The position numbers and the translations under genes are program-made. Shown piece by piece: positions 5,712 through 59,181 of a DNA stretch of 60,976 bases; within the stretch, counting starts at the first letter, position 1, and each line of letters starts with the position of its first letter. The notes beneath the pieces are model-generated. The model did no database searches. It was not told the origin of the DNA and saw only the letters and a list, made by a program, of their open reading frames with translations. Source of the stretch: a virus (lineage: Duplodnaviria > Caudoviricetes); IMG/VR virus record IMGVR_UViG_3300045999_003786, positions 1 to 60,976 of that record; one strand, given 5' to 3'.

Positions 5712-6518
5712 ATGTCGTACCAAGGGCCTGTTCGAGCATGGGGTGACCTAGAATGGGGCGAAGGGTCTTGGGGCGGCATTGGTGTAGTTGTTGACCTCGG
5801 GCCTACGTGGGGCAACGGTGGCTGGGGCGAGGGTGCTTGGGGCGACAATGTTCTGATTGCCGTTTCCGCAACAGGCGCAGTAGGATCAATAACAATAGCG
5901 GTCTCAGACAGCGTAGTGCTGACAGGGGTGGAAGGAACAGGTGCTGTAGGCACGGTTCTTGTTGTAGTTGGCGATGCCGTAATACCGGTGGGCGTTGCGG
6001 GCACGGGTGCGGTAGGAACTGTAGCTACAAACTACAGCAGCGTCCAAATCCCAACCGGCGTACAAGGCGTCGGAGAGATGGGCGGCTTTGACGTACAGGT
6101 CGATGACATCGTCATCCCTGTTGGTGTTGAAGGCACTGGGTCCGTCGGTGCGGTAACATTCAGTGTTGGCACCGTTCTTAATGTAACGGGTGTTGTTGGA
6201 ACCGGCCAAATTGGCACCGCAGTTCCGGCGTATGAAAGAATAGTTGTAGTCAGTGGTGTTTCGGGCACAGGAAGCGTAGGGGCTGTAGCACTAGCGGTCG
6301 CTCCTACAGTCGTTGGCGTGGCTGCGTCCGGTGCAATAGGTACAGTAACAAACACCAGAAGTGCTAATGTTTTTCCCACTGGTGTTGCTGGCACAGGAAC
6401 CGTAGGAACAGTTAGAATCATCGGATGGACAGTGGTCCCTGATACACAGACCCCGAACTGGACAGGCGTAAACGATAGTCAGACCCCGAATTGGGTTGAA
6501 GTAAACATAGCAGCTTGA
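5712..6518 (+). CDS. Gly/Val/Thr-repeat virion protein with WG.G.WG motifs
   Basis: Repeated (V/P)TGVxGTGxVGxV units; N-terminal WGEGSWG/WGEGAWG; C-terminal DTQTPNW/DSQTPNW duplication. Confidence 0.65.
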   Translation: MSYQGPVRAWGDLEWGEGSWGGIGVVVDLGPTWGNGGWGEGAWGDNVLIAVSATGAVGSITIAVSDSVVLTGVEGTGAVGTVLVVVGDAVIPVGVAGTGAVGTVATNYSSVQIPTGVQGVGEMGGFDVQVDDIVIPVGVEGTGSVGAVTFSVGTVLNVTGVVGTGQIGTAVPAYERIVVVSGVSGTGSVGAVALAVAPTVVGVAASGAIGTVTNTRSANVFPTGVAGTGTVGTVRIIGWTVVPDTQTPNWTGVNDSQTPNWVEVNIAA

Positions 6519-7281: not shown

Positions 7282-7665
7282 ATGGCAAATCCCAATATCG
7301 TTGCCGTCACCAACATTGTTGGTAACACAAGTACCAATTTAATCAGCTCAACGGCTGACCCGTTTGCGACTGCGCTGGCAAGTAATGCTGCCTCAAGTGG
7401 CAAGGTCTTTAAGATCAACTCCATTGTGGCGGCTAACGTCGATGGCTCCTCTGCCTGCGACATCACGATCAAGATATTTTCGCAGGACGATCTGGGCGGG
7501 ACGGGTACTGCAATTGCCTCGACGATCTCTGTCCCTGCGGACGCAACGCTGATTATCACTGACAAGACCACAAGCTTCTATCTTTTAGAGGACAGGTCTA
7601 TTGGTGCTACGGCCAGCGCAGCGAATGATGTCGTTGTTACAGTATCGTGGGAAGAAATTACGTAA
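7282..7665 (+). CDS. Tail-associated small beta protein
   Basis: MANPNIV..KINSIVAANVDG..ISVPADATL..SWEEI; SD AAGGAG; similar layout to 20292-20624. Confidence 0.65.
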   Translation: MANPNIVAVTNIVGNTSTNLISSTADPFATALASNAASSGKVFKINSIVAANVDGSSACDITIKIFSQDDLGGTGTAIASTISVPADATLIITDKTTSFYLLEDRSIGATASAANDVVVTVSWEEIT

Positions 7666-7675: not shown

Positions 7676-9070
7676 ATGTCTTTACGCCGACCCAATGGCT
7701 TTATCTCTGCGGGCTATGACCCGCTGGAAGTCCCTAACGCGCCTACGATTGGTACGGCGACTTATGCTTCTGCTACGTCTGTTTCAATAACCTTTACCGC
7801 GCCTGCTAACGTGGGCGGGTCTGCTATTACAGGGTACGTGGCTACTGCGAGAAAGACGTCAGACGGCACGACCATCAGCGGCACAGGCTCTTCTTCTCCG
7901 GTTACTATTTCAGGTCTGACTACAGGCGTTGCCTACACGGTGACGGTGGCGGCGGTTAACTCGTTTGGTCTTGGTGTGTCTAGCGCGGCGAGTAACTCGG
8001 TTACGCCGTTAGCGCAGCAGTTGTGGAGTTGGGGGAAAGGCAACAGTGGTCAGCTTGGCCTTGGAGATGCCCTATACAAATCAAGCCCCGTGCAAGTAGG
8101 CGCAATCACTACATGGTCTCAAATAGCTCTTGGTAACAGTGCTGCTCTTGCTGTTAAAACAGACGGTACTTTATGGAGCTGGGGTTTTAACAACAAGGGT
8201 CAACTTGGCCTTGGTGACATTGTAGCCCGTTCCAGCCCAGTTCAAGTGGGGGCACTAACTACATGGTATCAAGTAGCTGGTGGTTTTCGCCACTCAGTTG
8301 CCACTAAAACCGACGGTACTCTATGGAGTTGGGGCTATAATGTTTTTGGTCAACTTGGCCTTGGAAATGTTGTTTATCGTTCCAGCCCAGTTCAGGTAGG
8401 AGCGTTAACTACGTGGTATCAAATAGCGGGTGGGGATCAATTTACCCTCGCTACCAAAACAGATGGGACATTGTGGAGCTGGGGCCAAAACAACTTTGGT
8501 CAGTTAGGTCTTGGAGATGTTGTTTATCGCAGCAGCCCTGTACAAGTTGGCGCACTCACCACTTGGTCTCAGATTGCAAGTGGTGATTATCATAGCCTTG
8601 CCATTAAAACAGACGGTACTGTATGGAGCTTTGGGCGTAACAGCTCTGGCGATCTCGCTCTTGGTGACACTGTTAATCGCTCATCTCCTGTTCAAATAGG
8701 TGCGCTAACAACTTGGTATAAGATCGCAGGTGGAAGAACTTTTAGTCTCGCTATAAAAACTGACGGCACGGCGTGGAGTTGGGGGACCGGAGGAAGCGGA
8801 CAGCTTGGCCTTAACGATGTCGCTGAACGCTCAAGCCCAGTTCAAATAGGCGCACTTACTACATGGTCTCAGATTGCTGGTGGAAGTTCTTTTAGTCTTG
8901 CCATCAAAACCGATGGCACGATGTGGAGCTGGGGGGCTAATGGGGACGGCGCACTTGGCCTTAACAACACTGCTAATCGCTCTAGCCCAGTTCAAGTAGG
9001 GTTGCTAACTACGTGGTTAACATTACCTAAAATGCCAGCAGCAAACTCGTCTCTCGCCATCAAAGGATAA
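7676..9070 (+). CDS. FN3 domain plus 7 RCC1/BLIP-II-type repeats (beta-propeller), putative receptor-binding protein
   Basis: Start reassigned to 7676 (SD AAGGAG). PNAPT..ITFTAP..GGSAITGY..GLT.G.AYTVTVAAVN is FN3-like; then seven 50-aa repeats WSWGxNxxGQLGLGD...SSPVQVG...W..IA.G....AIKTDGTL. Confidence 0.85.
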   Translation: MSLRRPNGFISAGYDPLEVPNAPTIGTATYASATSVSITFTAPANVGGSAITGYVATARKTSDGTTISGTGSSSPVTISGLTTGVAYTVTVAAVNSFGLGVSSAASNSVTPLAQQLWSWGKGNSGQLGLGDALYKSSPVQVGAITTWSQIALGNSAALAVKTDGTLWSWGFNNKGQLGLGDIVARSSPVQVGALTTWYQVAGGFRHSVATKTDGTLWSWGYNVFGQLGLGNVVYRSSPVQVGALTTWYQIAGGDQFTLATKTDGTLWSWGQNNFGQLGLGDVVYRSSPVQVGALTTWSQIASGDYHSLAIKTDGTVWSFGRNSSGDLALGDTVNRSSPVQIGALTTWYKIAGGRTFSLAIKTDGTAWSWGTGGSGQLGLNDVAERSSPVQIGALTTWSQIAGGSSFSLAIKTDGTMWSWGANGDGALGLNNTANRSSPVQVGLLTTWLTLPKMPAANSSLAIKG

Positions 9071-9105
9071 CCATGAACATCAACCAATCAGGCTTGAGGT
9101 GCTAA

Positions 9106-10233
9106 ATGCCGAGTTACAGCGGAGTGTGGACGTTACAAGCTCAGATGCAGGCCGTGGCCGCTGGTACGTGGACTGGGTTGCCGCAGTTGTTTGCGTGGGG
9201 AAACAACGGCAGTGGTAGATTAGGTCTTAACGACACTGCTAATCGTTCAAGCCCAGTACAAGTAGCAGGTCAAAATTGGTCTCTAATAGCTGGTGGTCAA
9301 GGCTTTACTATTGCCACTAAAACTGACGGGACACTGTGGTCTTGGGGGTATAACAACAATGGTATGCTGGGGCAAAACGATACTGTTAGCCGTTCCAGCC
9401 CAGTACAAGTTGGGGCATTGACTACTTGGTATCAAGTGGCCGCTGGCACAGCTTTTAATCTTGCCACTAAAGCTGACGGAACGCTATGGAGCTGGGGGCG
9501 TAACCAATATGGACAGCTTGGTCTTAACGATACTGCTAACCGCTCTAGCCCTGTACAAGTCGGTGCTTTGGCTACTTGGTCTCAGGTTGCGGCTGGGGCG
9601 CTACACAGCCTTGCCGTTAAAACCGACGGAACCCTGTGGAGTTGGGGCTATAATGTTTTTGGTCAACTTGGCCTTGGAGACATAACCTATCGCTCTAGCC
9701 CTGTACAAGTAGGAGCGTTAACTACTTGGTCTCAAGTAGCTGCTGGCACTAACCATAGTCTGTCCATTAAAACTGACGGTACGTTGTGGTCTTGGGGGCG
9801 TAACGACTCCGGTCAACTCGGCCTTGGTGATATCGTCCACCGCTCCAGTCCTGTTCAAGTCGGAGCTTTAACAACTTGGTCTAGGATTTCAGGTGGACAG
9901 CAGTTTAGCCTTGCCGCTAAAACCGACGGCACGTTATGGAGTTGGGGACAAAACAACGCTGGTCAACTTGGTCTTGGTGACGTTGTCCTTCGTTCCAGCC
10001 CTGTGCAGGTTGGGGGGTTAACTACATGGTCTCAAGTTGCTGCTGCGCCATCACACAGCCTTGCCATCAAAACAGACGGGACACTGTGGAGCTGGGGGTA
10101 TAACGGCAGTGGTCAACTTGGCCTTGGAAATACTGCTGGCCGCTCTAGCCCTGTTCAAGTCGGGTTGTTAACGACTTGGTCAACACTACCAAAAATACCT
10201 TTGGCGCAAAATTCACTAGTCATTGGTTCATAA
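9106..10233 (+). CDS. RCC1-repeat beta-propeller protein (7 repeats)
   Basis: Same repeat consensus, with a short N-terminal SGVWTL..Q....GTW anchor motif. Confidence 0.85.
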   Translation: MPSYSGVWTLQAQMQAVAAGTWTGLPQLFAWGNNGSGRLGLNDTANRSSPVQVAGQNWSLIAGGQGFTIATKTDGTLWSWGYNNNGMLGQNDTVSRSSPVQVGALTTWYQVAAGTAFNLATKADGTLWSWGRNQYGQLGLNDTANRSSPVQVGALATWSQVAAGALHSLAVKTDGTLWSWGYNVFGQLGLGDITYRSSPVQVGALTTWSQVAAGTNHSLSIKTDGTLWSWGRNDSGQLGLGDIVHRSSPVQVGALTTWSRISGGQQFSLAAKTDGTLWSWGQNNAGQLGLGDVVLRSSPVQVGGLTTWSQVAAAPSHSLAIKTDGTLWSWGYNGSGQLGLGNTAGRSSPVQVGLLTTWSTLPKIPLAQNSLVIGS

Positions 10234-10243
10234 CAGGATAACA

Positions 10244-12013
10244 ATGAACAAACACCTACACTTCCTCTCAGGCGTACCTCGATCAGGCTCCACTGTGCTG
10301 GCGGCTATCCTGAATCAGAACCCAATGACGCACGTGTCAACAACCTCTGCTCTGGGCGCAGCTCTGGACGGTCTGGCTACGGCTTGGCATCGTGACAACC
10401 TTTTAGTTAACAACGATCCTGATCGCAGCAAACTGGCTCACACCATGCGCGGAGTGATTGACGCTTTCTACGAGGACGTTCCCAAGCCCGTAATCATCGA
10501 CAAGGCACGTAACTGGCCGATTCCCGTGATTATGCAGGCGATGGGTCAGGTGCTGGGTCACAAGCCCAAGATCATTGCCACAGTGCGTTCTATCCCTGAC
10601 TGCATGGCGTCCTTTGTCCGGGTAGCCAAGCCTGAGAACCTCGATGACTTCCTCGTTAACAGCTCACTCACGAATCACCTGAAAGGCTCCTACCAAACCC
10701 TACAACAAGGCTACGCCTACGATGCTGAGTCGTTCCTGTTTGTAGAGTACGAAGACCTGCTGGCCGACCCCAAAGCTCAGTTACAACGAATTCACGCATT
10801 CCTTGACCTGCCCGACTTTGACTACGACTACGCCAACATCGACGGCTCTACGGTCAAAGAGGACGACGAGAACCTGCACGGTTACTCGGGCCTGCACGAC
10901 ATCAAGCCTGTCCTTGAGAAGCAGCACCAACAAAGCCCCAAGGACGTACTCAAGCACCACTACGCGCAGTTCTGTCAGCCTGAGTTCTGGTTGGAAAGAC
11001 CTCGCACTGTCCCCGATATCCACGACCTTGATCTGCAACTGGTGGCCTCAAGAATGGGCGACTTTGCAGAGGGCTGGAGACTGTGCCAGAAGCTGGAGAA
11101 GGACGAGCCTGATAACCACCGAGCCGCCTACAACCGGGGCTGGTATCTTTTACGTCAGGGCCAGATTCAGAAGGGCTATCAACTGCTGGACCGTGGCCGC
11201 ATTGTGAACGTCTTTGGCAACGCCAAGCCTAACGTCCCAACTGTTGCGTGGGATGGTAAGAGCAAGGGCATTGTGATGCTGCACCTTGAAGGCGGTCTGG
11301 GAGATCAGATACACCAAGTCAGATACGCCAAACTGATTGCTGATCGTGGCTGTAAAGTCATTGTTTCTTGTACTGGCGCACTGGCCTCTCTATTCGTGGA
11401 CGTTGAGGGTGTGGCGGCTGTTATCCAGCACGAAGCGTCTTTCGGTATCTACCATGACTTCTACGTGCAGGGAATGTCCGCTGTTGTGCCTCTGGGCCTT
11501 GAACTAGACGATCTTAGTGGTAAGCCGTACATCACGAAGCCTAAGACCATCAAAGCCCGCAGGAAGCGCATAGGGCTACGCTGGCAGGGTCAGTCAGCCT
11601 TTGAGAACGACCACAACAAGAAGTTTCCGTATGAGCTGCTGTTCGATGCAGTCAAGGATGCAGATGCTGAGTTCATCTCCCTGCAACGTGACGAGGGTGC
11701 TGATTCGTGTCCGTCATGGGTTAAGCAGGTTCCTTTAGATTCATGGGAAGATACCCGTGCTGCTGCGGCATCGTGTGATCTGGTGATCTCTTCCTGTACT
11801 TCAGTGAGTCATTTGTCTGCGGCGATGGGCGTAGAGACTTGGGTTGTGACGCCGGTGATGCCGTACTTTCTATATGCCCTAGAAGGCGATACCTGTCCTT
11901 ATTACGATACAATGCGCCTGATGCGTCAGGAAGTATTCGGTGACTGGACTGCCAGCTTTGAGAAGATCAAAGAGCGTCTTGGTGAGAAACAAGCCTTGAG
12001 GAGAGTCAAGTGA
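10244..12013 (+). CDS. Sulfotransferase-TPR-glycosyltransferase (GT9-like) fusion
   Basis: SGVPRSGSTVL (PAPS-binding loop), IIDKAR, VEYEDL..P; central AAYNRGWYLLRQG TPR-like segment; EGGLGDQI and DLVISSCTSVSHLSAAMG GT-B/GT9-like motifs. Confidence 0.8.
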   Translation: MNKHLHFLSGVPRSGSTVLAAILNQNPMTHVSTTSALGAALDGLATAWHRDNLLVNNDPDRSKLAHTMRGVIDAFYEDVPKPVIIDKARNWPIPVIMQAMGQVLGHKPKIIATVRSIPDCMASFVRVAKPENLDDFLVNSSLTNHLKGSYQTLQQGYAYDAESFLFVEYEDLLADPKAQLQRIHAFLDLPDFDYDYANIDGSTVKEDDENLHGYSGLHDIKPVLEKQHQQSPKDVLKHHYAQFCQPEFWLERPRTVPDIHDLDLQLVASRMGDFAEGWRLCQKLEKDEPDNHRAAYNRGWYLLRQGQIQKGYQLLDRGRIVNVFGNAKPNVPTVAWDGKSKGIVMLHLEGGLGDQIHQVRYAKLIADRGCKVIVSCTGALASLFVDVEGVAAVIQHEASFGIYHDFYVQGMSAVVPLGLELDDLSGKPYITKPKTIKARRKRIGLRWQGQSAFENDHNKKFPYELLFDAVKDADAEFISLQRDEGADSCPSWVKQVPLDSWEDTRAAAASCDLVISSCTSVSHLSAAMGVETWVVTPVMPYFLYALEGDTCPYYDTMRLMRQEVFGDWTASFEKIKERLGEKQALRRVK

Positions 12014-13221
12014 GTCAAAAGTATCCCGGCGGCATAATCAGTAAAACGGCTCCTGTCACTGTCGGCCCTGTCGCTGGTGAGGGCGGCTCTGCGCCGGGTA
12101 TCTGGACACTGACTCAGGCACTGGAATTGAATAAGCAGAACTTGTGGCCGAAGCCTGTGTTGCCTAAAGAGTTGTATGCGTGGGGGACTGGCTCCTATGG
12201 TCAGCTTGGCCTTAACGACGTAACCAGCCGTTCTAGTCCAGTACAAATAGGCTCCTTAACTACGTGGTCTAAAATAGCTGGCGGTCAAAACTCTAAAGCT
12301 GCCATTAAAACAGACGGCACTTTGTGGAGCTGGGGGTACAATGCCTTGGGTCAACTTGGTCTCAACGATGCCGCTAGTCGCTCAAGCCCCGTACAAATTG
12401 GCGCATTAACAACTTGGTATCAAGTAGCTCCCGGCGGATACCAAGTAGCGGCAACCAAAACAGACGGCACACTGTGGGGCTGGGGGCGTAACAACGACGG
12501 TCAGTTAGGTCTGGGAGACACTGTTAACCGTTCCAGCCCCGTGCAAGTAGGGGCATTAACAACTTGGTATCAAGTAGCTGGTGGACAGTCCTTCACCCTT
12601 GCTATTAAAACTGACGGTACGATGTGGGGTTGGGGTGATAATGGCGGTGGTATGCTTGGCCTTAACGACACTATTAACAGATCAAGCCCAGTACAAATAG
12701 GCTCCTTAACTACTTGGTATCAAATGGCTGCTGGAAACAGCCACACTATCGCTACTAAAACAGACGGAACGCTTTGGAGTTGGGGGAGGAACGGCTTTGG
12801 TCAGCTTGGCCTCAACGACACAGTTTACCGATCAAGCCCAGTTCAAGTAGGCGCGTTAACAACATGGTCTCAAATAGCTGGCTGTAGCAACTTTACCGTT
12901 GCCACTAAAACCGACGGCACCCTGTGGAGCTGGGGGAATAACATTGACGGGCAACTTGGCCTCAACGACACAGTCATCCGTTCTAGTCCGGTTCAAGTGG
13001 GGGCGTTAACTACTTGGTATCAAGTAGCTGGTGGTCAATCTTTTACCATTGCCACTAAAACCGACGGCACGATGTGGAGCTGGGGTTCTGGTTCTAGCGG
13101 TAGGCTTGGCCTCAACGACACAGCGAACCGCTCAAGCCCAGTACAAATAGGAGCGTTGACAACGTGGTCGAAGCTACCAAAAATGCCAATGAGCACTTCA
13201 TCCTTAGCTCTTAAATCTTAA
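12010..13221 (+). CDS. RCC1-repeat beta-propeller protein (7 repeats)
   Basis: GTG start overlapping the upstream stop; YPGGII...GIWTL.Q...LWP anchor; seven repeats. Confidence 0.85.
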   Translation: MSQKYPGGIISKTAPVTVGPVAGEGGSAPGIWTLTQALELNKQNLWPKPVLPKELYAWGTGSYGQLGLNDVTSRSSPVQIGSLTTWSKIAGGQNSKAAIKTDGTLWSWGYNALGQLGLNDAASRSSPVQIGALTTWYQVAPGGYQVAATKTDGTLWGWGRNNDGQLGLGDTVNRSSPVQVGALTTWYQVAGGQSFTLAIKTDGTMWGWGDNGGGMLGLNDTINRSSPVQIGSLTTWYQMAAGNSHTIATKTDGTLWSWGRNGFGQLGLNDTVYRSSPVQVGALTTWSQIAGCSNFTVATKTDGTLWSWGNNIDGQLGLNDTVIRSSPVQVGALTTWYQVAGGQSFTIATKTDGTMWSWGSGSSGRLGLNDTANRSSPVQIGALTTWSKLPKMPMSTSSLALKS

Positions 13222-13235: not shown

Positions 13236-13634
13236 ATGTTCTTTGTAAAAATAGTAAACGACGAAGTAACCCAGTGCTGGGACACACAACCTCCCAAAGG
13301 CGAGTCAGGCTGGAAGTCAGCCATCGAAGTACGCCCTGCTGTGACACCTAACCGTCAGCAGTACACCGGCCACAGCTTTGATATCACCAAAGACCCTGTT
13401 GAGATCGTCTGGGGTGTTCAAGACATCACTGCTGAAGACCGTAAAGGCGGACTGCGTTCACAGGCTGCTGCTGCGTTTCAGCAGGTTGTACAGGAAGAGA
13501 TGCGTAAAGAGGTCGATGAGTTCCCCACTACTCAGTACAACCCTGCTACTGTTGACGCTGCCCGTATTGCTTTCGAGACCAAGGTCACTGCAATCAACGC
13601 AGCCACTACGCACGAAGAGCTTGATGCGCTGTGA
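13236..13634 (+). CDS. Putative tail fibre assembly/chaperone-like protein
   Basis: C-terminal AINAATTHEELDAL resembles fibre-associated small proteins; SD AGGAG. Confidence 0.5.
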   Translation: MFFVKIVNDEVTQCWDTQPPKGESGWKSAIEVRPAVTPNRQQYTGHSFDITKDPVEIVWGVQDITAEDRKGGLRSQAAAAFQQVVQEEMRKEVDEFPTTQYNPATVDAARIAFETKVTAINAATTHEELDAL

Positions 13635-14326
13635 GACTGAACTACTCGTATGACATGACACCATCCAAAGCCTACATCATCCGTGTTGTGGGTAACGCTG
13701 CCTCTGAAGAGAAAGCCAAGCGGTGTGCAGTGTCATGCGAGAAAGTGGGCCAGCCCTACGAGTTCTGGGACGCTTATGATGGTTTAGCAGACGAGATCAA
13801 ACCTCCTGCTCACCACAATGCCATCATGGACTGCATTAAGGTCACAGATCACTACCTGACCCGTGGCGAAGTAGCGTGTGCGTTGTCCCACATAAGCCTG
13901 TGGGCAAAGTGCGTACTTGAAGACAAGCCTCTGGTGATTCTGGAGCATGACTCGTTGATGTTGCAGCCCTACACGCAACACGCTGTCTTTAACTCGATCT
14001 GCTACTTAGGCTCGCACGAGCAGGTCAAACTTAACTGGCAGGTGTCTGCTACGCCTCCCCACGCGACTGAAGGTGAGAACTACCACTTCCTGTGCCGTGC
14101 TCATGCGTATGCAATCGACCCGGCTGTTGCCAAGAACCTGTTGTCCTACGTTATCAAGATGGGTATTTGTACATCCTTAGATATGCTGGTTCGTGCTGAC
14201 CTGTTCCCCATTCACCAGATGGGTGTCTACGCCTATAATGTGTTTGAGAGCAGAGAAGAAACAACCATCAAAGGTCGAGCCTTAGAGGGCAGAGCCACTA
14301 AACGAAACGACGGGCTGCTGGTATGA
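13631..14326 (+). CDS. Glycosyltransferase family 25-like protein
   Basis: AYII..., F.DAYDG, LTRGEVACALSH..LW, VILEHD and AHAYAI.P motifs of GT25. Confidence 0.8.
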   Translation: MRLNYSYDMTPSKAYIIRVVGNAASEEKAKRCAVSCEKVGQPYEFWDAYDGLADEIKPPAHHNAIMDCIKVTDHYLTRGEVACALSHISLWAKCVLEDKPLVILEHDSLMLQPYTQHAVFNSICYLGSHEQVKLNWQVSATPPHATEGENYHFLCRAHAYAIDPAVAKNLLSYVIKMGICTSLDMLVRADLFPIHQMGVYAYNVFESREETTIKGRALEGRATKRNDGLLV

Positions 14327-14739
14327 AGATTCTCGTGATGGGCCTGCCGGGTAGCGGTAAGACCACACTAGCAAGGGCTGTAGCCCAAAAGCTACAGTGC
14401 GCTCACTTTAACGCCGATGAAGTACGGGCCACGTTGAGCAAAGACTTAGGGTTCAGCATCGCAGACAGGATAGAGCAGGCTAGGCGCATGGGGGCCTTGT
14501 GCGATCTGAGTACGAGTCAGCACGTGATTGCCGACTTTGTATGCCCTACGCCTGAGACGAGATTGGCGTTCAATGCTGACTTTGTAGTGTGGGTAGATCG
14601 CATCAAAGCAGGCAGGTTTGAAGATACCAATAGGCTCTTTGTCCCGCCTGAGCAGTGCGACGTGCGAGTGACGGCAGAGTGCGATTACCCTACGTACTAC
14701 GTAGATTTAATTACCAAGCTAGTTGAGGACTCTCAATGA
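14323..14739 (+). CDS. cysC: Adenylylsulfate (APS) kinase-like protein
   Basis: GLPGSGKTT P-loop, NADEVR..LSKDLGFS..DR.EQARR and ADFVCP..ETR match the CysC signature; shorter than cellular CysC. Confidence 0.7.
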   Translation: MKILVMGLPGSGKTTLARAVAQKLQCAHFNADEVRATLSKDLGFSIADRIEQARRMGALCDLSTSQHVIADFVCPTPETRLAFNADFVVWVDRIKAGRFEDTNRLFVPPEQCDVRVTAECDYPTYYVDLITKLVEDSQ

Positions 14740-46032: not shown

Positions 46033-49000
46033 ATGCCAAATTTGACTTCACGAGAGATGCTGGCACGACTTCCTGTGCGGATGGCTGATGGTGGTGATGC
46101 GGCGGGCGTATCTGCGGCCTACCGAGAGGCGATGGCAAAGGGCGGCCAGCAGACTGTTAACGACTACTACGCTAATCTGCGGGCAGAGGGCGAGAAGTAT
46201 CTAGCCAACCCCAACGCGCCGACCGGCCCTGAAGCGTACAACGTGTTGTTGCAGTCTGGCATTAGCACCTCTGATCTGATCAATGCGGGTGTTAATCGGG
46301 CCGTGTTGGACAAGATCTTCACGGTGCAGCAGCCGGCTGGGCAGCTCACGGCGACGGGGCAGGTTATTCCGGCACAGGCTCCGGCGATGCAGTTTACGAC
46401 CCCCGCAGGCTTGACCTCTGCGTATGAGCGCAGTCCGGATTTGATGAACGAGATGGCGAGGCTTGGGCAGCTTGGGCAGGATGGGCGAGCGGCGTTGGAT
46501 GCGCAGGGCCGGGACTATCTTGCCAACTTACAAAAGGATGGCATTAGCGATCAAGAACGTGCGCAGGCGCGGGAGTACGGCACCGAGCGTGGCTACACGT
46601 TTGATGACCTGCGCAAGGCTGGTGTTGACCCGAGCTTTTTATTTAACATAGTGACGCCACCGCCAAAGGCTTACGTGCCGCCTGTGACTGCATCCTCTGC
46701 GTTCCCGCAGACGCAGACGACGTACACCGCGCCAACCGTGTACCAGCCGCTGGCAACACAGCCTGACATCTACACGGCTGGGCAGCCTGCACTTGACACG
46801 GCTTTCCGGAACAGCGCCCCGCGCACCGCGATTGCGGACATGCCGGGCTATTTTAACTACACCCCTGCTGCCAAGCTTCGCCCGGCAACAGGCGCCGGCT
46901 ACACCTTTACGCCGCCAAGCGTGACCTCCCGTCCGCGCTCCCTGTTGAGTCCGAGCGACATTAAGGCCTACGGCGGCATGACATCCAAGTCTCAGCAGTT
47001 TGCACAGAACCGCGCGGCTATTGACCGCAACTTGCGTGCCTTGTTGTCTGCGACGCCTGCGCTCCAGAACGCCAGCACCTACAACATGCTGCGCAACCGA
47101 GTAATGTCCGGTGAGTTTGGTGATGCGCAGCGCGCGTTTGACCCCGCGACGACAGAGGGGCAGCGATTACAAGCTTTGGTGAGTGGGCTTGGCACGGTTA
47201 CGGGCGGGCCTGCTCCGGGCACTACTGGCATCACTGGCGGCACCACTGGCACTATTGCCGACAGCACGACTGCGGGCGGATACGCGGCATCGATTGAGCC
47301 TCTGACTTACGGCGGCTACAGGGAGTTCAACCAAGGTGGTGCGGTAAAAAAGCCTGAAGGGTTTGCGGAAGGAGGGATTGCCACTTCAGGGCGAATCCCT
47401 CTTGATCCCAGCGACCCGAGGTACATCACAGAGGATCCGCGCGTAAGTCCTGATGTTCAGGTGCCGTTGGACGAGCTTCTTCGTCGGCAGATGGCGGCAT
47501 CTCCACGGCCCACGGCGCCGTCTCCTCGCATGGCCCGAGCAGCGCAGCAGGCCGCGCAGCCGCAGACAGAAAGTGCGTCGATGCTTAGCAACCTGCTGGC
47601 TGGCGCGGCGCAGATCCCCGGCACAGTGTACGATTACGGCAAGGGCATTGCGCAGAGCGAGCGCCCGCTGGCAGCGTTTGGCGAGGATGTGAGCACGCTG
47701 GCCGGTGGTATGTACGAAGGGCTTAAGCAGGATCCGATTGGGTTTGGCTTGGACATGACACCGATTATCGGCGAGATACGCTCAGGGATGGACGCGAAGA
47801 AGTACTCGGACATGGCCAACGAGGCGCAAGCTGCTGGCGACACGGCGCTTGCTGACACCTACCGGCAGGTTGCCACGATGGCAGCTGCAGGTGCGGTTCC
47901 TTTTGGCGGCATCGGCGCTCGCGGCGCTAGGCGCGCGGCAATAAGTGATATGGACGATGTGCCTCCGGACGATGTGCCTCCGGACAGTGCGCGGGGGATG
48001 ATGGATGCTCTGACGCCTGAGACGGGCATTGATGGCCCGAGAACACTAGGCGAAGACGTTGACGCCTTGACCGCACTGGACCAGCCGCCGGCAGGCAGTG
48101 CTGCGGCGATGTTGGATGATCTGGAAGATGCGGCTGATGTGTCTGTGGCCAGACTGGCCAGAAATGAGACGCAGGCGATAGATGCTGCGGTGAAAAGCAG
48201 AGGTCGTCGAAGAACTTTAAAAACCGAAGCACGCAGAATTAAAAACAATTATTTGCAAGAAGATGGCTGGGCACCCCTTGAAGTTGCAGGGGTAAAAGAG
48301 AACAAGCCTAGATTTAAAAAAATCGCTTATGGTTTTGAAAACGCACCAGAAGGTGTTGACCCGCTAACATGGTCAAGTCGTCTTTCTGACAATATAGTCT
48401 CAGAAGTTGACGGTGTAGTAGAGCGCGCGCGAGCTGGGGATGAGGCGGCAATCGGCATACTTAGACAGGCCAACTGGTATCGCAGCATGCGCAACCAGCT
48501 TCGTTCTGAGTTTGGAGGCATCGGGGATGTCTTTGCCGACGTGCTTGGCACAACAAGCGCCCAAACAAACGTGGAGCAAAATTTTAGGAATGCGGTCCAG
48601 ATATTGCGACGATATAGTCGCGGCGAGTTTGATGCGGAGCTGCAGGCTTATGAAAACAGAATTAAACAAGGCCTGCCTGTAGATGGAAAAACGCTGACTG
48701 CTTTGCACAATAACGGAGAGTTCCCTTTAATTACCAGTTCATCTGGCAAGCTTTTCAATACAAACAGCCCATCCTCGATGGGTGCGTTGTTGAATATGTT
48801 CAGGTCGGTAAAGACCGGAAGCGCACCAAAAACACCAAACTTTACCGGCAATCTTATTGGCCTTACTAATGAGGCAACAATAGATGTTTGGGCGGCACGT
48901 ATGTTGCGCAGGCTTTCTGGCCAGTCACGCATACCCCCTGTCGCTGAGCAGGGTGTGAAAGGCGACCATTTGGCCGGATCAACCCTTGAAAACCCCCTTG

Positions 49001-52000
49001 TTGGGAGCGAGTTTGGTTTTGGTCAAGAAGTGTTCCGCAACGCTGCAGACAGGATTAATGCATCTGGCGGTGTAAGGTCTATTGTTCCTGAAATGGGTGA
49101 TCTTGGGCCAGACGACCTGCAGGCGGTTGCTTGGTTTATGGAAAAGGAAAGATGGACTGATGCCGGCTGGACCACAAAAGCAGGGGAAGGCGGATCTCTT
49201 GACTACGAAATGTCCTTGGCAGGAAGCCCTGAGCAAGTGCAGATCAATAGCCTGCGACGAGAGCTCAATACTGGATTCAAAGCGCCAAAGAAAAGAAAAC
49301 GAGAAACAGAAGCGGAGCACGCCGAACGGGTAGCGCAGGCAAGGCGTGTTTATGACAATAGGCAGGAGTTTGCAGGCATCGAGCTTAGGGCTCTTCAGGC
49401 CCCGCTTCAACGCTACACAATAGGCGTCTCTGGCGAGATACGAAACCGCAAGGGAGTGCCAGACAAGCTGATGAGCAACTACGAACAGGCAGAATTTGCC
49501 GCTGAGTACGATGACGTGGTTCGTAATGATCCAGCTGTGCTTGGATACAACCTTGCCAATACCTACGGCTCTTTCATGGGCGCCACTGAACGGTCGTTGA
49601 ATGGGGAGTTTGTAGTTCGAGAAAACTTTGACCCAAGCGCCTTGATCAGAAGAATGGTTGAGCAGGGTAAATTTTACGATCAGGATGCTGTGTTCATATC
49701 CAAGTCGGTTCCGGCAGGAGCGCCAAACGCAAGGCCGGGGGTTGAGATATTTTATAAAAAAGAGGTGACCCCAGAGGCTCTTGCTAAAGTTACCGAGAGC
49801 TTGAGAGCGCATGGGATAGACGGGTTTACTTACATAACCGACATGCGGTTTGATGACAAAGTGAACCGTCAGGCTCGATCAGGCGCACGCGAGACAGCGT
49901 CCCTGACCGGATTGCGTTTTCAGTACATACCTGAGTTTGATGAAAATTTTGATCCTGCTCGCGCTGCTGAGATTTATAAGGAAAAAGAAGATTTGTTTGC
50001 AAGAGTGCTTGCAGATACAATGGCGGATGAAAATGTATCTGATGTAAGATATAACTTTTACGATACGCAAGTCTTTTTTAGGGATGGATACGATGAGTAC
50101 CTTACGAGAAATACTCCAGCGGGTGGAAGCCAATCAGGGGGAGAAATCTCCACTGGCGCAGGCCCTGCGCAATCAAATAATGGCGGAAGAGCGGGGACAG
50201 AGCTTCGGCAACCTGTACCTGACGGGCTCGGTCAAGCGCCCGGTAGCGGCATCCCCCAGCTCAAAAAAGGCGGAGCAGTAACCTCCTCCCGCCGCATGTT
50301 GGATGCCCTCATCGGAAAAAAGCCTGAAGGCCAGCGCGTTGATGCGTCTGGCCTGCAGCGCTTTGCCAAAGGTGGAGAAGCAGCCTCTGCGCCCACCTCC
50401 CAAGAACTCCTTGCGCAAATTGATCGCAGCACGGCCAACTCCCCTGCTCCTGCCTACGGCACGGCCAGCAGCGCCCCCGACCGCGAAGTGACTGAAAGCC
50501 GCAACATGCTGATGCGCATCAGTGATGCGTTTGGCAAGAACGTGACGGCTCCGGTGGTTGGGTCAGCGCTGGACATGACGGCTGGCGTCGGCGATCTACT
50601 GCAGATGGGCGCGAAGGCCGGCGCAAAAAGGTTGGGCATTGAGACCAAGCCGTTCACTCCTGTGTCTTCTGCTATTCAAGAATCCCTTGGCGTTGCCGGC
50701 TATGACCCGTACTCGCCCGCAGCGCTTGCAGCCAGTGTTCTGCTACCAGCCGCAGGGCCGTTGCGCGCCGCTGGTGCCGCAACACGCCCCATGATGAGCA
50801 TGGCGGCCCCCGGCAGCGCGAAGGAGACGCTCTCGCGGCTTGCGCCTATTCTGGACAGGGAAGCATCGGTGGCTGCCAGCGCTGAACTGGCGGCGATGGG
50901 CGCGCGCGAACTGGCTCCTGACAATGTCACCGCAGAAATAGCAGCAGCAATTGCCGGTGGCGGTGCGTACAACACCTTGGACAACATCTTAGGTAGCGCC
51001 TCAAGGGGGCCGACTACCAGCGGCATTATCAAAGAGCGTGGTGGTAACTGGCTTGCTGGATCGATTGAGGATGATTTAGCAATGTTGCGCAATGCTAATC
51101 AAGGACTGCTTTCAGATACGCCAGCAGCTAAACTCGCTGAGATGGAAGCAAGGTATACACCAGAGGCAATGGCATCTCTTAGTCCAGACTTAAGATCGCA
51201 CGTTCAAAGCAGTCTTGATAGTCTTCGATCCAGAGCATATATCGACAACTGGATTGACTCGAAACTGGGCAAGTACATTCGTAATGAAATGGCTACTGAG
51301 TCAGATCCTATACGACTGCAGGCCGATGCGTTTGAAGGTCTTCAAGCAGATCGCCTAGCACAAAAAAACGCGCAAATTGCCAGAGCAATGGAGAACATGG
51401 AGCGAGCGCGGCTTGATCGGGGCGTTACGCTTAATGAAATGACTGCGTCTCAGGCGCAGATCAGGGAGCTTGAGCGTGAGAGAGCCTTGATTGCAGCGCA
51501 GACTGGGTTGCATGCTGATATTGCATTACTCGGAGACGATGGTCTTGCGGCTCACTGGGCGAGACGGGAATCTGGATACCCTATGTTTGGATCAGGACTG
51601 TCTACTATGGGTAAGGCGTGGGAAGACGCAGCGGACTTGTCTATCAGGAGAGATAAGGCAGGAGATTTATTAACTGAAGGTGAGAGCGAATGGGTGACTC
51701 CTGCAGCTCTTGCAAGGATGCAAACTGATTTTATTAATAAAAACCCGTGGCTGTCTAAAATACCTCCAGAGTCAAATGTCTACAGTCCTCGACAAAGCGG
51801 CTATCCATTTGGCGGCCTCGGGCTTGACCACTTAATCGACGAACTGGGAAATGCCACAGCGCCAAACTCTGACTTGCCAGCGTCCCTGCGCATTGACCCT
51901 ACTAATTTAAATAGGATGTCTGTTGCGGACGTTTCCAAGAAGGTTGACGAGATAAACGCATGGAGAAAAGTTAACCGTGCAGAGGCGGATGCGGTAAAAG

Positions 52001-52836
52001 CCAACAACGCCGCCACGGTTCCTTACAGGCAATACGATACTGTCCCGTACCAGAACAAGCCAAACGTCAAAGAGTTTAAGTGGGTTCAGCTTGCGAGAAG
52101 CCAAGAAACGCCAGAGGCCAACGCTGCGCTAAATGACGCGCTGGAGTATGAGGGCAGTGCAATGGGGCACTCGGTTGGCGGGTACAGAACTCGGGAGCGC
52201 GGCGGCTCTGATACTTACGGACTCGGCGGGTGGGATGCCATAACCAATGATCGTGCGCGCATCTATTCTCTGAGAGATGAAAGCGGAAAACCTTTTGCAA
52301 CAATTGAAATGGAGAACGAACCTCCGTGGATTTCAGGTGAAATACTTAATGAGATTGAGCCGGGAATCTGGAACCAGATTGTTGCCGACCGTGGTCAGTA
52401 TGACGCTAGCGCATGGCTTCAGCGAAACAGACCTGACATTTTGGAAAAGTTTAACGCTCGGCCATATCTTGGCATTAATCAGATTAAAGGTCCCGGCAAC
52501 GGCATGCCGGATGCAGATGCTTTGCCGTTTATCCAAGACTTTATTATGTCTGGGAAATGGTCTTATGTTAATGATCTGCAGAACACAGGGCTTGCAACAC
52601 GAGACCGACGGACCGGCCGCACCCCAAGATCACTTCAAAGTTTAAGCACCAAAGAAATTGACCAAATTTGGGATAGAATTGATGGTGATTACACGACTGA
52701 AAGCGAGATGCTGAGTAAGGCTAGAGAGCTATTTCCAGATAAAATTCCTTCAGATAAAAAAGGTTTTACTAAAGGCGGCCTAGCATCCAAAAGCAACGTA
52801 GAGCGCGTGCGCAACGATAATCGAAAGTATCTTTAG
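46033..52836 (+). CDS. Giant modular (polyvalent) virion-associated protein, 2267 aa
   Basis: Lies between terL and portal. Contains a glycosylase-like HhH domain (WY...PKT.NF..NL..TIDVWAAR...LQAVAW) and a PcfJ-like domain (EG..MGHSVGGY..IYSLRD..TIE..QIKG..N), with modules separated by xxxGG motifs. Confidence 0.75.
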   Translation: MPNLTSREMLARLPVRMADGGDAAGVSAAYREAMAKGGQQTVNDYYANLRAEGEKYLANPNAPTGPEAYNVLLQSGISTSDLINAGVNRAVLDKIFTVQQPAGQLTATGQVIPAQAPAMQFTTPAGLTSAYERSPDLMNEMARLGQLGQDGRAALDAQGRDYLANLQKDGISDQERAQAREYGTERGYTFDDLRKAGVDPSFLFNIVTPPPKAYVPPVTASSAFPQTQTTYTAPTVYQPLATQPDIYTAGQPALDTAFRNSAPRTAIADMPGYFNYTPAAKLRPATGAGYTFTPPSVTSRPRSLLSPSDIKAYGGMTSKSQQFAQNRAAIDRNLRALLSATPALQNASTYNMLRNRVMSGEFGDAQRAFDPATTEGQRLQALVSGLGTVTGGPAPGTTGITGGTTGTIADSTTAGGYAASIEPLTYGGYREFNQGGAVKKPEGFAEGGIATSGRIPLDPSDPRYITEDPRVSPDVQVPLDELLRRQMAASPRPTAPSPRMARAAQQAAQPQTESASMLSNLLAGAAQIPGTVYDYGKGIAQSERPLAAFGEDVSTLAGGMYEGLKQDPIGFGLDMTPIIGEIRSGMDAKKYSDMANEAQAAGDTALADTYRQVATMAAAGAVPFGGIGARGARRAAISDMDDVPPDDVPPDSARGMMDALTPETGIDGPRTLGEDVDALTALDQPPAGSAAAMLDDLEDAADVSVARLARNETQAIDAAVKSRGRRRTLKTEARRIKNNYLQEDGWAPLEVAGVKENKPRFKKIAYGFENAPEGVDPLTWSSRLSDNIVSEVDGVVERARAGDEAAIGILRQANWYRSMRNQLRSEFGGIGDVFADVLGTTSAQTNVEQNFRNAVQILRRYSRGEFDAELQAYENRIKQGLPVDGKTLTALHNNGEFPLITSSSGKLFNTNSPSSMGALLNMFRSVKTGSAPKTPNFTGNLIGLTNEATIDVWAARMLRRLSGQSRIPPVAEQGVKGDHLAGSTLENPLVGSEFGFGQEVFRNAADRINASGGVRSIVPEMGDLGPDDLQAVAWFMEKERWTDAGWTTKAGEGGSLDYEMSLAGSPEQVQINSLRRELNTGFKAPKKRKRETEAEHAERVAQARRVYDNRQEFAGIELRALQAPLQRYTIGVSGEIRNRKGVPDKLMSNYEQAEFAAEYDDVVRNDPAVLGYNLANTYGSFMGATERSLNGEFVVRENFDPSALIRRMVEQGKFYDQDAVFISKSVPAGAPNARPGVEIFYKKEVTPEALAKVTESLRAHGIDGFTYITDMRFDDKVNRQARSGARETASLTGLRFQYIPEFDENFDPARAAEIYKEKEDLFARVLADTMADENVSDVRYNFYDTQVFFRDGYDEYLTRNTPAGGSQSGGEISTGAGPAQSNNGGRAGTELRQPVPDGLGQAPGSGIPQLKKGGAVTSSRRMLDALIGKKPEGQRVDASGLQRFAKGGEAASAPTSQELLAQIDRSTANSPAPAYGTASSAPDREVTESRNMLMRISDAFGKNVTAPVVGSALDMTAGVGDLLQMGAKAGAKRLGIETKPFTPVSSAIQESLGVAGYDPYSPAALAASVLLPAAGPLRAAGAATRPMMSMAAPGSAKETLSRLAPILDREASVAASAELAAMGARELAPDNVTAEIAAAIAGGGAYNTLDNILGSASRGPTTSGIIKERGGNWLAGSIEDDLAMLRNANQGLLSDTPAAKLAEMEARYTPEAMASLSPDLRSHVQSSLDSLRSRAYIDNWIDSKLGKYIRNEMATESDPIRLQADAFEGLQADRLAQKNAQIARAMENMERARLDRGVTLNEMTASQAQIRELERERALIAAQTGLHADIALLGDDGLAAHWARRESGYPMFGSGLSTMGKAWEDAADLSIRRDKAGDLLTEGESEWVTPAALARMQTDFINKNPWLSKIPPESNVYSPRQSGYPFGGLGLDHLIDELGNATAPNSDLPASLRIDPTNLNRMSVADVSKKVDEINAWRKVNRAEADAVKANNAATVPYRQYDTVPYQNKPNVKEFKWVQLARSQETPEANAALNDALEYEGSAMGHSVGGYRTRERGGSDTYGLGGWDAITNDRARIYSLRDESGKPFATIEMENEPPWISGEILNEIEPGIWNQIVADRGQYDASAWLQRNRPDILEKFNARPYLGINQIKGPGNGMPDADALPFIQDFIMSGKWSYVNDLQNTGLATRDRRTGRTPRSLQSLSTKEIDQIWDRIDGDYTTESEMLSKARELFPDKIPSDKKGFTKGGLASKSNVERVRNDNRKYL
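50093..50281 (+). CDS. Candidate overprinted small gene nested in the polyvalent protein (alternative frame)
   Basis: MSTLREILQRVEANQGEKSPLAQALRNQIMAEERGQSFGNLYLTGSVKR is amphipathic and protein-like, while the host frame here is a G/S/P/A linker; weak SD GGATGG. Confidence 0.5.
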   Translation: MSTLREILQRVEANQGEKSPLAQALRNQIMAEERGQSFGNLYLTGSVKRPVAASPSSKKAEQ

Positions 52837-58179: not shown

Positions 58180-58192
58180 TAGGAGCTAACTC

Positions 58193-59101: not shown

Positions 59102-59128
59102 GCAAAATCAACGACTTACGTCGTTACT

Positions 59129-59152
59129 AAGGGCCCTTCGGGGCCCTTTTTT
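59129..59152 (+). terminator. Rho-independent terminator
   Basis: AAGGGCCC-TTCG-GGGCCCTTTTTT. Confidence 0.9.
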
Positions 59153-59181
59153 ATTGTAATGGTAAAATAGCGATACAAGGC

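Follow-up and report, generated by a model that had tools for sequence, protein, structure and literature searches.

Three genes encoding seven-bladed RCC1 propellers (i.e. g1, g2 and g3) were found in the window, which is the whole stretch of 60,976 nucleotides that was analysed. Similar phage genes are already known. The products of these genes are probably modular virion adhesins whose receptor-binding heads have been diversified by ordinary recombination; in this reading, incorporation into the virion and binding to the host are the steps that we infer.

All three genes lie on the + strand and have intact reading frames with exactly seven blades each. An Fn3 domain (7676-8020; Pfam fn3, 1.3e-10) opens g1 (7676..9070) and is followed by the propeller at 8021-9067 (Pfam RCC1, 1e-79, 7 stretches); the N-terminal 115 aa match two PHROG families named 'minor tail protein' (phrog_6977 and phrog_23968). 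In g2 (9106..10233), 27 N-terminal aa precede the propeller at 9187-10230 (RCC1, 1.1e-84, 7 stretches; RCC1-like domain, 3.4e-84), whilst g3 (12010..13221) carries 54 N-terminal aa and a propeller at 12172-13218 (RCC1, 1.8e-78, 7 stretches). A Pfam scan of the entire record returned 21 RCC1 matches, every one within these genes. Repeats anchored on SSPVQ number seven in each of the three + strand ORFs, as a preliminary description of this DNA had stated, but the uniform length of 150 nt that it gave applies to 17 of the 18 anchor spacings, the interval from blade 1 to blade 2 of g2 being 147 nt. Blade 7 of each gene is divergent in its C-terminal half. An AlphaFold2 model of g2 (pLDDT 87.3, pTM 0.84) matched UVR8 in Foldseek with a TM of 0.85-0.87, an rmsd of ~1.5 A and 35% identity. 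UVR8 was also matched by phmmer (E = 1e-68), and the closest solved structures were UVR8, HERC and RCC1, with RPGR also among the PDB relatives.

The blades had been described as near-identical, which is true only of the protein scaffold. Pairwise comparison of the 21 blades gave nucleotide identities of 46-78% (mean 63%) and amino acid identities of 39-86% (mean 63%), with a synonymous difference proportion averaging 0.67, i.e. silent sites are near saturation. Thus, the scaffold is kept by purifying selection and not by recent homogenisation. The nonsynonymous and synonymous proportions were 0.14 vs 0.68 in the 33 framework columns and 0.53 vs 0.65 in the 17 variable columns. At the protein level, a fixed framework with loops that vary in nearly every blade was borne out, and all eight loops listed previously (KGNS, FNNK, YNVF, QNNF, RNSS, RNQY, DNGG and NNID) were found at blade positions 6-9. 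Variability was highest at positions 6, 8, 9, 19, 39, 40, 41 and 43 in a set of 247 distinct interior blades taken from 97 ORFs, with a composition at these positions of 15% N, 14% Y and 11% S. Strands in the model occupy blade positions 1-5, 20-25, 32-37 and 41-46, indicating that positions 6-19 form the C-D loop and positions 38-40 the A-B loop. In an alignment to UVR8, positions 39-40 fall on W-R of its GWRHT motif and position 6 falls on the second W of WGWG; the tryptophans of these motifs reportedly line the dimer and partner-binding face of UVR8. Strand topology and these residue roles place the variable positions in loops that would share one propeller face, in agreement with the earlier prediction. 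For blades that are still orthologous, nonsynonymous/synonymous changes were 19/32 in variable columns and 39/153 in framework columns (Fisher p = 0.016), counts that point to relaxed constraint in the variable columns and not to demonstrable positive selection.

In 13 related phage contigs, backbone identity was 86-93% as compared to 61-76% for the propellers. The comparison against L012 and L013 gave these same ranges for backbone and blades, the latter aligned without gaps; the propellers therefore form three sharp islands of divergence, which start and stop at or within the repeat arrays. Only blades 1-2 of g1 (83-93%) and blade 7 of g3 (83-84%) were at or near the backbone level, and propeller identity between relatives was otherwise at the level found between paralogous blades. 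Repeated intragenomic conversion could also produce divergence of this degree. In four relatives, synonymous proportions were mostly 0.15-0.46 for the anchors (two short g2 anchors were higher) vs 0.57-0.76 for the propellers, and in close relatives the N-terminal segment of g3 was 80-96% identical at the amino acid level vs 58-69% for its propeller. The repeat number was always seven.

Ten members of a near-clonal sister clade were compared against a reference (i.e. L033). Propeller A was covered in eight members, with 0 mismatches in six, 7 in one and 272/1023 in L034, in which the flanks of the divergent propeller are near-identical to those of L033. Propeller B exhibited 0-2 mismatches in 10/10 members. 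L034 is thus a case of whole-propeller replacement in an otherwise near-clonal genome. The new allele is ~76% identical to each sibling propeller and shares no exact run of at least 30 nt with them. Smaller changes were also observed, with a ~100-nt patch differing between L012 and L013 in g3 blade 6, and partial propeller mosaics occur too. A donor for the imported alleles or the patch was not found among 74 loci, and hence a pool of old alleles is postulated from the levels of divergence. Parts of the window propellers match, letter for letter, contig pieces in four lake runs, each belonging to a different study.

Exchange between blades of one genome was detected as short identical tracts. 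A 42-nt tract in g1 blade 3 (8324..8365, + strand, encoding WSWGYNVFGQLGLG), the likely donor copy, is exactly identical to the likely recipient copy in g2 blade 4 (9637..9678, + strand), with identity stopping at both ends. The second-longest in-register identical run among 210 blade pairs was 27 nt, and a run of 42 nt was reached in 0/1000 nucleotide-column shuffles and 1/1000 codon-column shuffles; the identity between paralogues that had been noted around the YNVF loop is hence exact and above chance. The orthologous g1 blade 3 of L012 also reads YNVF at the loop, and the g2 blade 4 loop is RNSY in both L012 and L013. The tract is best read as a probable conversion in which g2 blade 4 received the YNVF loop of g1 blade 3. 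Other shared tracts were present in L013 (41, 34 and 31 nt) and L016 (41 nt), of which the 34-nt tract in L013 is a clean conversion from g3 to g2 when seen against its sibling L012 and, from this comparison, postdates the L012/L013 split. Recombination breakpoints fall in conserved scaffold motifs. These conversions, together with the lack of any RVT_1 match in the record, uphold the proposal that blades are exchanged without a reverse transcriptase.

The same tracts favour an alternative, that of the preliminary description, in which intragenomic shuffling is the principal source of variation, i.e. the 21 blades keep converting one another and this process alone scrambles the propellers to the paralogue level. 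Also consistent with this alternative are the positions of the island borders, the paralogue-like divergence of 'orthologous' propellers and the differences between L012 and L013 in g2, which are largely clusters of silent changes. On a tree, blades of the same gene failed to cluster together (11 gene-label changes vs a shuffled mean of 10.3), as had been anticipated, but none of the 18 inner branches was well supported and the mixing is therefore weak evidence. Several observations argue against a dominant role for shuffling. The low identity of the blades and the near-saturation of their silent sites indicate that conversion is rare relative to mutation, and the 42-nt tract is the only one of the window that exceeds the shuffle null. 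No exact run of at least 24 nt was shared between blades in three of eight genomes examined. Neither the L034 propeller nor the L012/L013 patch had a donor among the blades of its own genome or its siblings, near-clonal genomes other than L034 differ at 0-7 sites per ~1 kb propeller, and the window alleles recur unchanged in the four lake runs. Intragenomic shuffling as the principal and continuing generator is thus unlikely, the blades being old and unhomogenised; the large changes that were seen are imports of foreign propeller DNA and not rearrangements of the phage's own blades. Overall, the pattern reported in the preliminary description is real but overstated, and its interpretation is supported in part.

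The carrier is a lake phage of ~58 kb related to DSL-LC04, its nearest cultured relative (TerL, 77.6%), and to HTVC023P-type pelagiphages. The record, rated complete by CheckV, wraps at both ends onto a second strain. The propeller genes are positioned between tail-like genes and lysis genes. RCC1 was absent from the two nearest cultured relatives, DSL-LC04 among them, and the same slot in DSL-LC04 is occupied by a gene for a 1365-aa ConA-like lectin/glucanase protein together with further genes. A conserved neighbour upstream of g1 (7282..7665, + strand; 89-90% nucleotide identity in L012 and L013) encodes a 127-aa protein that is 75% identical to a DSL-LC04 homologue annotated 'putative lectin'. 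Between g2 and g3, and overlapping both, lies a gene for a 596-aa enzyme (10223..12013, + strand), which is 90-93% identical in nucleotides in L012 and L013 and hence conserved where the propellers diverge. Its product begins with a TPST-like sulfotransferase domain, continues with a TPR segment and ends in a predicted GT9-like glycosyltransferase domain. Evidence for the first two came from Pfam (Sulfotransfer_3, 4.1e-16; a weak TPR match) and a PDB profile search (olefin-synthase sulfotransferase, 8e-7; TPST2, 6e-5). In Foldseek, using a model with a pLDDT of only 66, the top 10 matches were tyrosylprotein sulfotransferases, and WaaC, SPY and OGT were matched at 6e-4 to 7e-4; an Atlas assignment of Glyco_transf_9 to residues 325-595 is a lead only. 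Two accessory enzymes are encoded downstream on the + strand: a GT25 glycosyltransferase (13631-14326; Pfam Glyco_transf_25, 2.8e-15) and an APS-kinase-like P-loop kinase (14323-14739; Pfam APS_kinase, 5.6e-13).

In the adhesin model, a short conserved N-terminal anchor (the Fn3 domain of g1, the 27 residues of g2 or the 54 residues of g3) would fix each head to the tail, and the Asn/Tyr/Ser-rich, blade-specific C-D and A-B loops on one face would contact the host surface, the propeller scaffold being held under strong purifying selection. No dedicated mutator would be needed for diversity. Old propeller alleles would circulate as a large pool among related lake phages, and ordinary homologous recombination would swap an entire head, a portion of one (through breakpoints in conserved motifs) or a ~100-nt patch; now and then, a 30-40-nt tract would be copied from blade to blade inside one genome.

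A second alternative, that the propellers are intracellular binders or regulators (e.g. inhibitors of host enzymes or defence proteins, or DNA organisers as suggested for phAPEC6) diversified by an arms race inside the cell, has a small probability. RCC1-like domains such as those of the PDB relatives are general protein-binding scaffolds, the neighbouring genes encode enzymes (sulfotransferase, GT25 and kinase) and not classic fibres, and the PHROGs category of the family is 'DNA, RNA and nucleotide metabolism', which, although assigned by name only, counts against an adhesin. A published account gives the function of phage RCC1 proteins as unknown and offers a role in DNA ordering as speculation (PMC7247149). 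An intracellular role is opposed by the Fn3 and 'minor tail protein' matches at the g1 N-terminus, the genomic slot with its lectin-like proteins in DSL-LC04, the presence of RCC1 propellers in cultured Pseudomonas phages as parts of proteins named tail fibre and the architecture of a conserved anchor with a swapped head.

It is very improbable that the repeat arrays are assembly chimeras of co-occurring strains. This is a metagenome assembly with ends that wrap onto a second strain, and Logan contigs break within the 42-nt tract; however, overlapping identical contig pieces of run X1 tile g1 and g2 together with a portion of g3, identical pieces cover parts of g1-g3 in three further runs, g1 blade 3 is orthologous in both arms to its L012 counterpart, and frames and blade number are intact throughout. 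Targeted hypermutation of loops, by a DGR-like or other mutator, would fit the focus of variation on a few codons per blade but is close to refuted by the absence of a reverse transcriptase from a CheckV-complete record and of any template-like repeat longer than 42 nt, by scaffold silent sites that have diverged as much as the loops and by loops that are identical between close alleles (L012/L013 g2) and in near-clonal genomes.

Other phage RCC1 proteins, which occur in several copies per genome as here, belong to the same repeat family, including phrog_7220, phrog_4219 and phrog_16766 ('regulator of chromosome condensation'; PHROG E-values 1e-37 to 1e-61), the eleven RCC1-like proteins of phAPEC6 and gp335, gp337 and gp344 of Synechococcus phage S-SRM01 (49% identity). 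In S-SRM01, as here, the RCC1 genes are interleaved with genes for a sulfotransferase, a TPR protein and glycosyltransferases. An 866-aa protein of Pseudomonas phage Ppr_SeaP2 that ends in RCC1 is encoded after the lytic transglycosylase gene, in the tail-fibre position; T7-like Pseudomonas phages have their propeller at the C-terminus of the protein encoded after this gene. Fold matches in BFVD included a 'Tail fiber protein' of phage Littlefix and a 'T7 tail fibre protein-like N-terminal domain-containing protein' of phage PollyC. Unlike the other RCC1-bearing phages compared, the carrier is neither T4-like nor T7-like.

Eukaryotic RCC1-like domains (UVR8, HERC1/2 RLDs, RPGR and RCC1) likewise have seven blades of ~50-residue repeats, and the tryptophan positions of UVR8 are those that vary in the phage propellers. 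The phage proteins exhibit no photoreceptor or GEF sign and differ in being phage-borne, in three copies, with small N-terminal anchors. Diversity-generating retroelements (DGRs) diversify phage tail-fibre tips and similarly focus diversity on the ligand-binding surface, putative here, of a tail-associated protein, but the window lacks their reverse transcriptase and template repeat, and its changes come as recombined tracts that bring silent differences along. The WD40 repeats of Podospora HNWD proteins (het-d and het-e) combine 'high internal conservation' with hypervariable binding positions and share with the phage genes a propeller scaffold, hypervariability confined to a few positions of each blade on a single face and tract exchange between repeats; the near-identity of repeat DNA that defines HNWD is absent here (46-78%) and the repeat number is fixed. 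Modular phage receptor-binding proteins (e.g. T-even gp37/gp38-type adhesins and T7 gp17-type fibres) combine a conserved anchor at the N-terminus with distal domains that can be exchanged. The likeness to these proteins lies in the conserved anchors and hyperdivergent heads, the replacement of a whole head in the otherwise near-identical L034 genome and the breakpoints in conserved motifs. The phage propellers differ in that the head is an RCC1 propeller and not a fibre tip or beta-helix, with a presumed virion attachment, and in the tandem arrangement of three heads with a modifying-enzyme gene between them.

Three plus-strand genes, designated g1 (7676-9070), g2 (9106-10233) and g3 (12010-13221), each encoded seven SSPVQ-anchored repeats. 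Pfam RCC1 models (PF00415 / PF25390) matched seven stretches in each protein (E = 1e-79, 1e-84 and 2e-78) and all 21 RCC1 matches of the whole record fell within these genes, in agreement with the three seven-bladed RCC1 propellers of a preliminary description made from the sequence alone. The signature of an RCC1-like domain (i.e. seven tandem repeats of ~50 residues with G-x-N-x-x-G-Q-L-G) was found in the proteins, which scored 258-284 bits with the RCC1-like domain model as compared to a cut-off of 150 bits. Every loop sequence quoted in that description was present in the blades; the number of repeats was also as described but their length was not exactly 150 nt throughout, as 17 of the 18 spacings were 150 nt and one was 147 nt. 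An AlphaFold2 model of g2 (15 sequences; pLDDT 87.3, pTM 0.84) contained four strands per repeat and its closest solved folds in a Foldseek search were UVR8 (TM 0.85-0.87, 35% identity) and RCC1 (TM 0.85), with HERC RLDs and RPGR also among the closest. On this model, g2 is predicted to adopt a seven-bladed beta-propeller fold.

These genes are carried by an IMG/VR virus record that spans 60,976 bases and is complete by CheckV (100%). The large terminase shared 77.6% identity with that of the lake phage DSL-LC04, the nearest cultured relative, and 57-60% with the terminases of Pelagibacter phages HTVC027P and HTVC023P; newly recovered HTVC023P-type genomes are described as Podoviridae in the available text of PMC9599517. 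The first 1.8 kb of the record recurs within its last 2.8 kb with 93-97% identity (58163-59167 matched 1-1010 at 93% and 60213-60976 matched 1082-1845 at 97%), the two copies of the major head protein (31-939 and 58193-59101) being identical at 297 of 302 residues. The end copy alone has an extra gene, a GIY-YIG-type homing endonuclease ORF (59239-60198) that follows the head gene and precedes the next one. Probably, a circular or permuted genome was joined in the record to a second strain with an endonuclease insertion; as the end of the record repeats its start, the real genome unit is ~58 kb. Immediately following the large terminase gene was a 2267-aa ORF (46033-52836) with no PHROG match; the gene following the terminase in DSL-LC04 is annotated as a 'PcfJ-like protein'. 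Upstream of the RCC1 genes, a 268-aa Gly/Val-rich protein (5712-6518) with GTGAVGTV-like repeats had a fibre-like look, matched no family and ended in a 33-nt tandem repeat (two copies, 6447-6510) encoding (Q)TPNW.

The blades had been described as near-identical but their nucleotide identity was only 46-78% (mean 63%; amino-acid mean 63%). Blade pairs exhibited a mean proportion of synonymous differences of 0.67, which is near saturation. Nonsynonymous and synonymous proportions were 0.14 and 0.68, respectively, for the 33 framework columns as compared to 0.53 and 0.65 for the 17 variable columns. Near-saturated silent sites combined with low nonsynonymous change in the framework indicate that purifying selection acting on old repeats, and not recent copying, maintains the scaffold. 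Variability was counted for 247 distinct interior blades, which came from 97 RCC1 ORFs of the window and related loci, with blade positions 21-25 fixed by the selection rule. The most variable positions were 6, 8, 9, 19, 39, 40, 41 and 43, whose residue composition included 15% Asn, 14% Tyr and 11% Ser. In the g2 model, the strands of each repeat spanned positions 1-5, 20-25, 32-37 and 41-46, usually named C, D, A and B; the C-D loop spanned positions 6-19 and the A-B loop positions 38-40. From the strand topology, these two loops would share one face of the four-stranded antiparallel blade. Positions 39-40 aligned with W-R of the UVR8 GWRHT motif and position 6 aligned with the latter tryptophan of its WGWG motif; these tryptophans line the dimer and partner-binding face of UVR8. 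In still-orthologous blades, nonsynonymous/synonymous differences were 19/32 in variable columns vs 39/153 in the framework (p = 0.016), an excess that reflects relaxed constraint and not measurable positive selection.

Diversification of the propellers as targets of a diversity-generating retroelement is very improbable, as there were no RVT_1 matches in this complete record while control genomes matched, no template repeat was present (exact repeats shared by the three genes did not exceed 42 nt) and silent scaffold sites differed as much as the loops. The preliminary description had proposed that exchange or gene conversion between blades generates the variation without a reverse transcriptase, and had expected blades to mix across genes in a phylogeny. 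No clustering by gene was observed (11 changes vs 10.3 in shuffled data) but the tree was star-like and none of its 18 inner branches had good support. The only supported groups were the three seventh blades (93/95), the fifth blades of g1 and g2 (88/90) and g1 blade 6 with g2 blade 3 (83/82), and clustering by position was weak (13 changes vs 15.2 shuffled; no higher in 9 of 200 shuffles). The 42-nt identity reported between g1 blade 3 (8324-8365) and g2 blade 4 (9637-9678) was exact; the next-longest in-register run between blades was 27 nt and shuffled columns reached 42 nt in 0/1000 and 1/1000 trials. The YNVF loop within this tract also occurs in the orthologue of g1 blade 3 in the related locus L012 and is therefore native to that blade. 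In a second related locus, L013, g2 contained 34 nt copied from blade 7 of g3 in the same genome and absent from L012, a dated within-genome conversion; the 42-nt tract is probably the same kind of event, with YNVF copied into g2 blade 4. Exact inter-blade runs of at least 30 nt were found in four of the eight genomes examined. Short inter-blade 'joints' (sides of 20-31 nt) in contigs of lake runs are expected of repeats in an assembly graph and no inference was drawn from them.

Comparisons with relatives pointed to exchange of larger units. An IMG/VR scan detected 491 stretches encoding relatives, the best of which was only 69% identical to g2, and 13 loci that have the backbone of the window in common. 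Amino-acid identities across these 13 loci were 96-99% for the sulfotransferase gene, 88-96% for a 127-aa upstream gene and mostly 97-99% for GT25 (84-89% in L016 and L022). Against L012 and L013, all backbone segments were 86-93% nucleotide-identical and the conserved N-terminal anchors of the propeller genes were 86-92% identical vs 61-76%, gap-free, for the blades. Only g1 blades 1-2 (83-93%) and g3 blade 7 (83-84%) were at or near the backbone level, and the divergence of g1 from L013 began inside the conserved WSWG-x-N motif. Synonymous proportions were mostly 0.15-0.46 in the anchors (higher in two short g2 anchors) vs 0.57-0.76 in the propellers, indicating that propeller divergence is much older than that of the surroundings. 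When the 21 blades were matched against 25 genes from 12 relatives (~175 blades), orthologous matches (80-93%) were obtained only for blades 1, 2 and 3 of g1 and blade 7 of g3; best matches of the remaining blades were 62-79% at scattered positions, as by chance among so many blades. Across pairs of relatives, propellers were either close (L012/L013 g2, 94%, and g3, 88%; L013/L018 g3, 99.9%) or at background (56-76%). The APS-kinase-like gene (14323-14739) was a fourth divergence island, being 59-60% nucleotide-identical, with gaps, to L012/L013 and 56-69% identical in amino acids to close relatives; GT25, located just upstream, was 91-93% nucleotide-identical to L012/L013.

Replacement of an entire head (i.e. 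the C-terminal seven-bladed propeller) was examined in a sister clade (L029-L046), which has two RCC1 genes, not three, flanking the sulfotransferase gene; ten members were compared with L033. For propeller A, six of the eight covering members had 0 mismatches and one had 7, while L034 had 272/1023 between flanks near-identical to those of L033. Propeller B exhibited 0-2 mismatches in 10/10 members. The new L034 allele was ~76% identical to both sibling propellers and had no exact run of at least 30 nt in common with them, indicating that it was imported and not reshuffled. Smaller replacements were observed between L012 and L013: a ~100-nt patch in blade 6 of g3 swapped both loops together with adjoining silent sites, and the g2 genes differed at 64/1128 sites, most of them silent and clustered, with the same loops. 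Donors for the L034 propeller and the blade-6 patch were not found among 74 loci and the window (best matches 74-78%). Difference-free contig pieces covered parts of the window propellers in four lake runs from four studies, indicating that the alleles are stable. In runs X1-X3, the sulfotransferase gene had a summed contig depth several-fold above that of the propellers, but contig depth cannot rank gene parts and this was not taken as evidence. On this evidence, which we consider clean, the heads appear to be replaced by recombination, with inter-blade conversion as a minor contributor. The earlier proposal was upheld as to the occurrence of conversions and the lack of a reverse transcriptase but not as to the dominant process.

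The propeller genes sit between tail-like genes and holin/endolysin genes, an apparent tail/host-recognition module in which receptor-binding proteins would be encoded. The N-terminus of g1 is an Fn3 domain (Pfam) matching 'minor tail protein' PHROGs; the short g2 and g3 anchors and neighbouring small proteins had no PHROG or NCBIfam match. RCC1 was not found in DSL-LC04 or HTVC027P. The DSL-LC04 homologue of the conserved 127-aa gene is annotated as 'putative lectin' and the slot after it is occupied by other genes, including one for a 1365-aa ConA-like lectin/glucanase protein. Pseudomonas phage Ppr_SeaP2 encodes an 866-aa protein with a terminal RCC1 propeller after the lytic transglycosylase gene, a place that we take to be the tail-fibre position by T7-like genome order. 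Fold matches in BFVD included proteins of phages Littlefix and PollyC that bear tail-fibre names. A conserved N-terminal anchor joined to a hyperdivergent, exchangeable distal domain is likewise an arrangement suggestive of receptor-binding proteins. Taken together, the tail slot, anchor, lectin-like occupants of this slot in DSL-LC04, tail-fibre names and swapped heads fit a role of the propellers as exchangeable host-binding heads, with virion incorporation and binding being putative. Of 53 loci in which one or more RCC1 ORFs were found, many of them on contigs incomplete at their ends, 22 had one such ORF, 19 had two, 11 had three and 1 had four. The one text found on phage RCC1 proteins (PMC7247149) calls their function unknown. 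Literature searches on phage RCC1 proteins as tail-fibre/receptor-binding or hypervariable proteins, and on cyanophage RCC1 (by listed titles and abstracts), yielded no virion or receptor-binding data; two apparent matches for RCC1, phage and tail fiber were strain or locus-tag numbers. Neither RCC1 nor sulfotransferase occurred as a term in the available text of the HTVC023P-type genome paper (PMC9599517).

A 596-aa sulfotransferase/TPR/GT9-like fusion (Pfam, profile and Foldseek) is encoded at 10223-12013, with its 5' end overlapping g2 and its 3' end overlapping g3, and was 90-93% nucleotide-identical to L012 and L013 where the heads diverge. The N-terminal domain is a sulfotransferase (Pfam). 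In a PDB profile search, olefin-synthase sulfotransferase (8e-7), SULT1C3 and tyrosylprotein sulfotransferase 2 (6e-5, whole domain) ranked well above heparan-sulfate enzymes (0.22). The ten best Foldseek matches of the protein, obtained with a model of moderate confidence (pLDDT 66), were all tyrosylprotein sulfotransferases, and the C-terminal part of this model matched WaaC heptosyltransferase, SPY and bacterial O-GlcNAc transferase (E = 6e-4 to 7e-4); residues 325-595 are Glyco_transf_9 according to Atlas, which was treated as a lead only. A sulfotransferase homologue adjoined an RCC1 gene in 58 of 74 loci, these loci having been chosen by RCC1 similarity. It is conceivable, if rather unlikely, that the propellers and the 596-aa enzyme gene constitute one mobile 'modified adhesin' cassette and that, with the GT25 and APS-kinase-like genes, the heads are modified post-translationally. 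The Tyr-rich variable loops would then be candidate sulfation sites, and the Ser-Ser-Pro that all blades have, unchanged, on their outer strand would be a candidate for O-glycosylation, with binding specificity set by loop sequence plus modification. No description of phage-encoded sulfation of a virion protein was found in the literature searched, as judged from titles and abstracts. A conserved gene with protein-modifying-type domains wedged between heads is a lead to a possible virion modification that is not known to have been described.

The finding is real and biologically sensible, yet a further case of a known kind, as many phages have annotated RCC1 propeller genes. Its distinctive features are the carrier lineage, the lack of DNA-level homogenisation, the recombinational replacement of heads and the fused protein-modifying-like enzyme. 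To our knowledge, there are no known receptor-binding proteins for the uncultured lake phages of this lineage, which are kin of abundant pelagiphages. The three sharp islands in a ~90%-identical backbone mark the parts most likely to set host range and provide a natural head-swap series. The comparison indicates that plain recombination, drawing on a pool of old alleles, can diversify a library-like repeat protein with neither DNA-level homogenisation nor a mutator. In the cultured T4-like Synechococcus phage S-SRM01, RCC1 genes are interleaved with genes for a sulfotransferase, a TPR protein, a 2OG-Fe(II) oxygenase and glycosyltransferases. HNWD-type arrays of high internal conservation have repeats that are near-identical in DNA and vary in number by unequal exchange, whereas the window blades are 46-78% identical and the propeller genes are constant at seven, with SSPVQ spacing consistent with seven blades in the window and in all 25 genes of 12 relatives.
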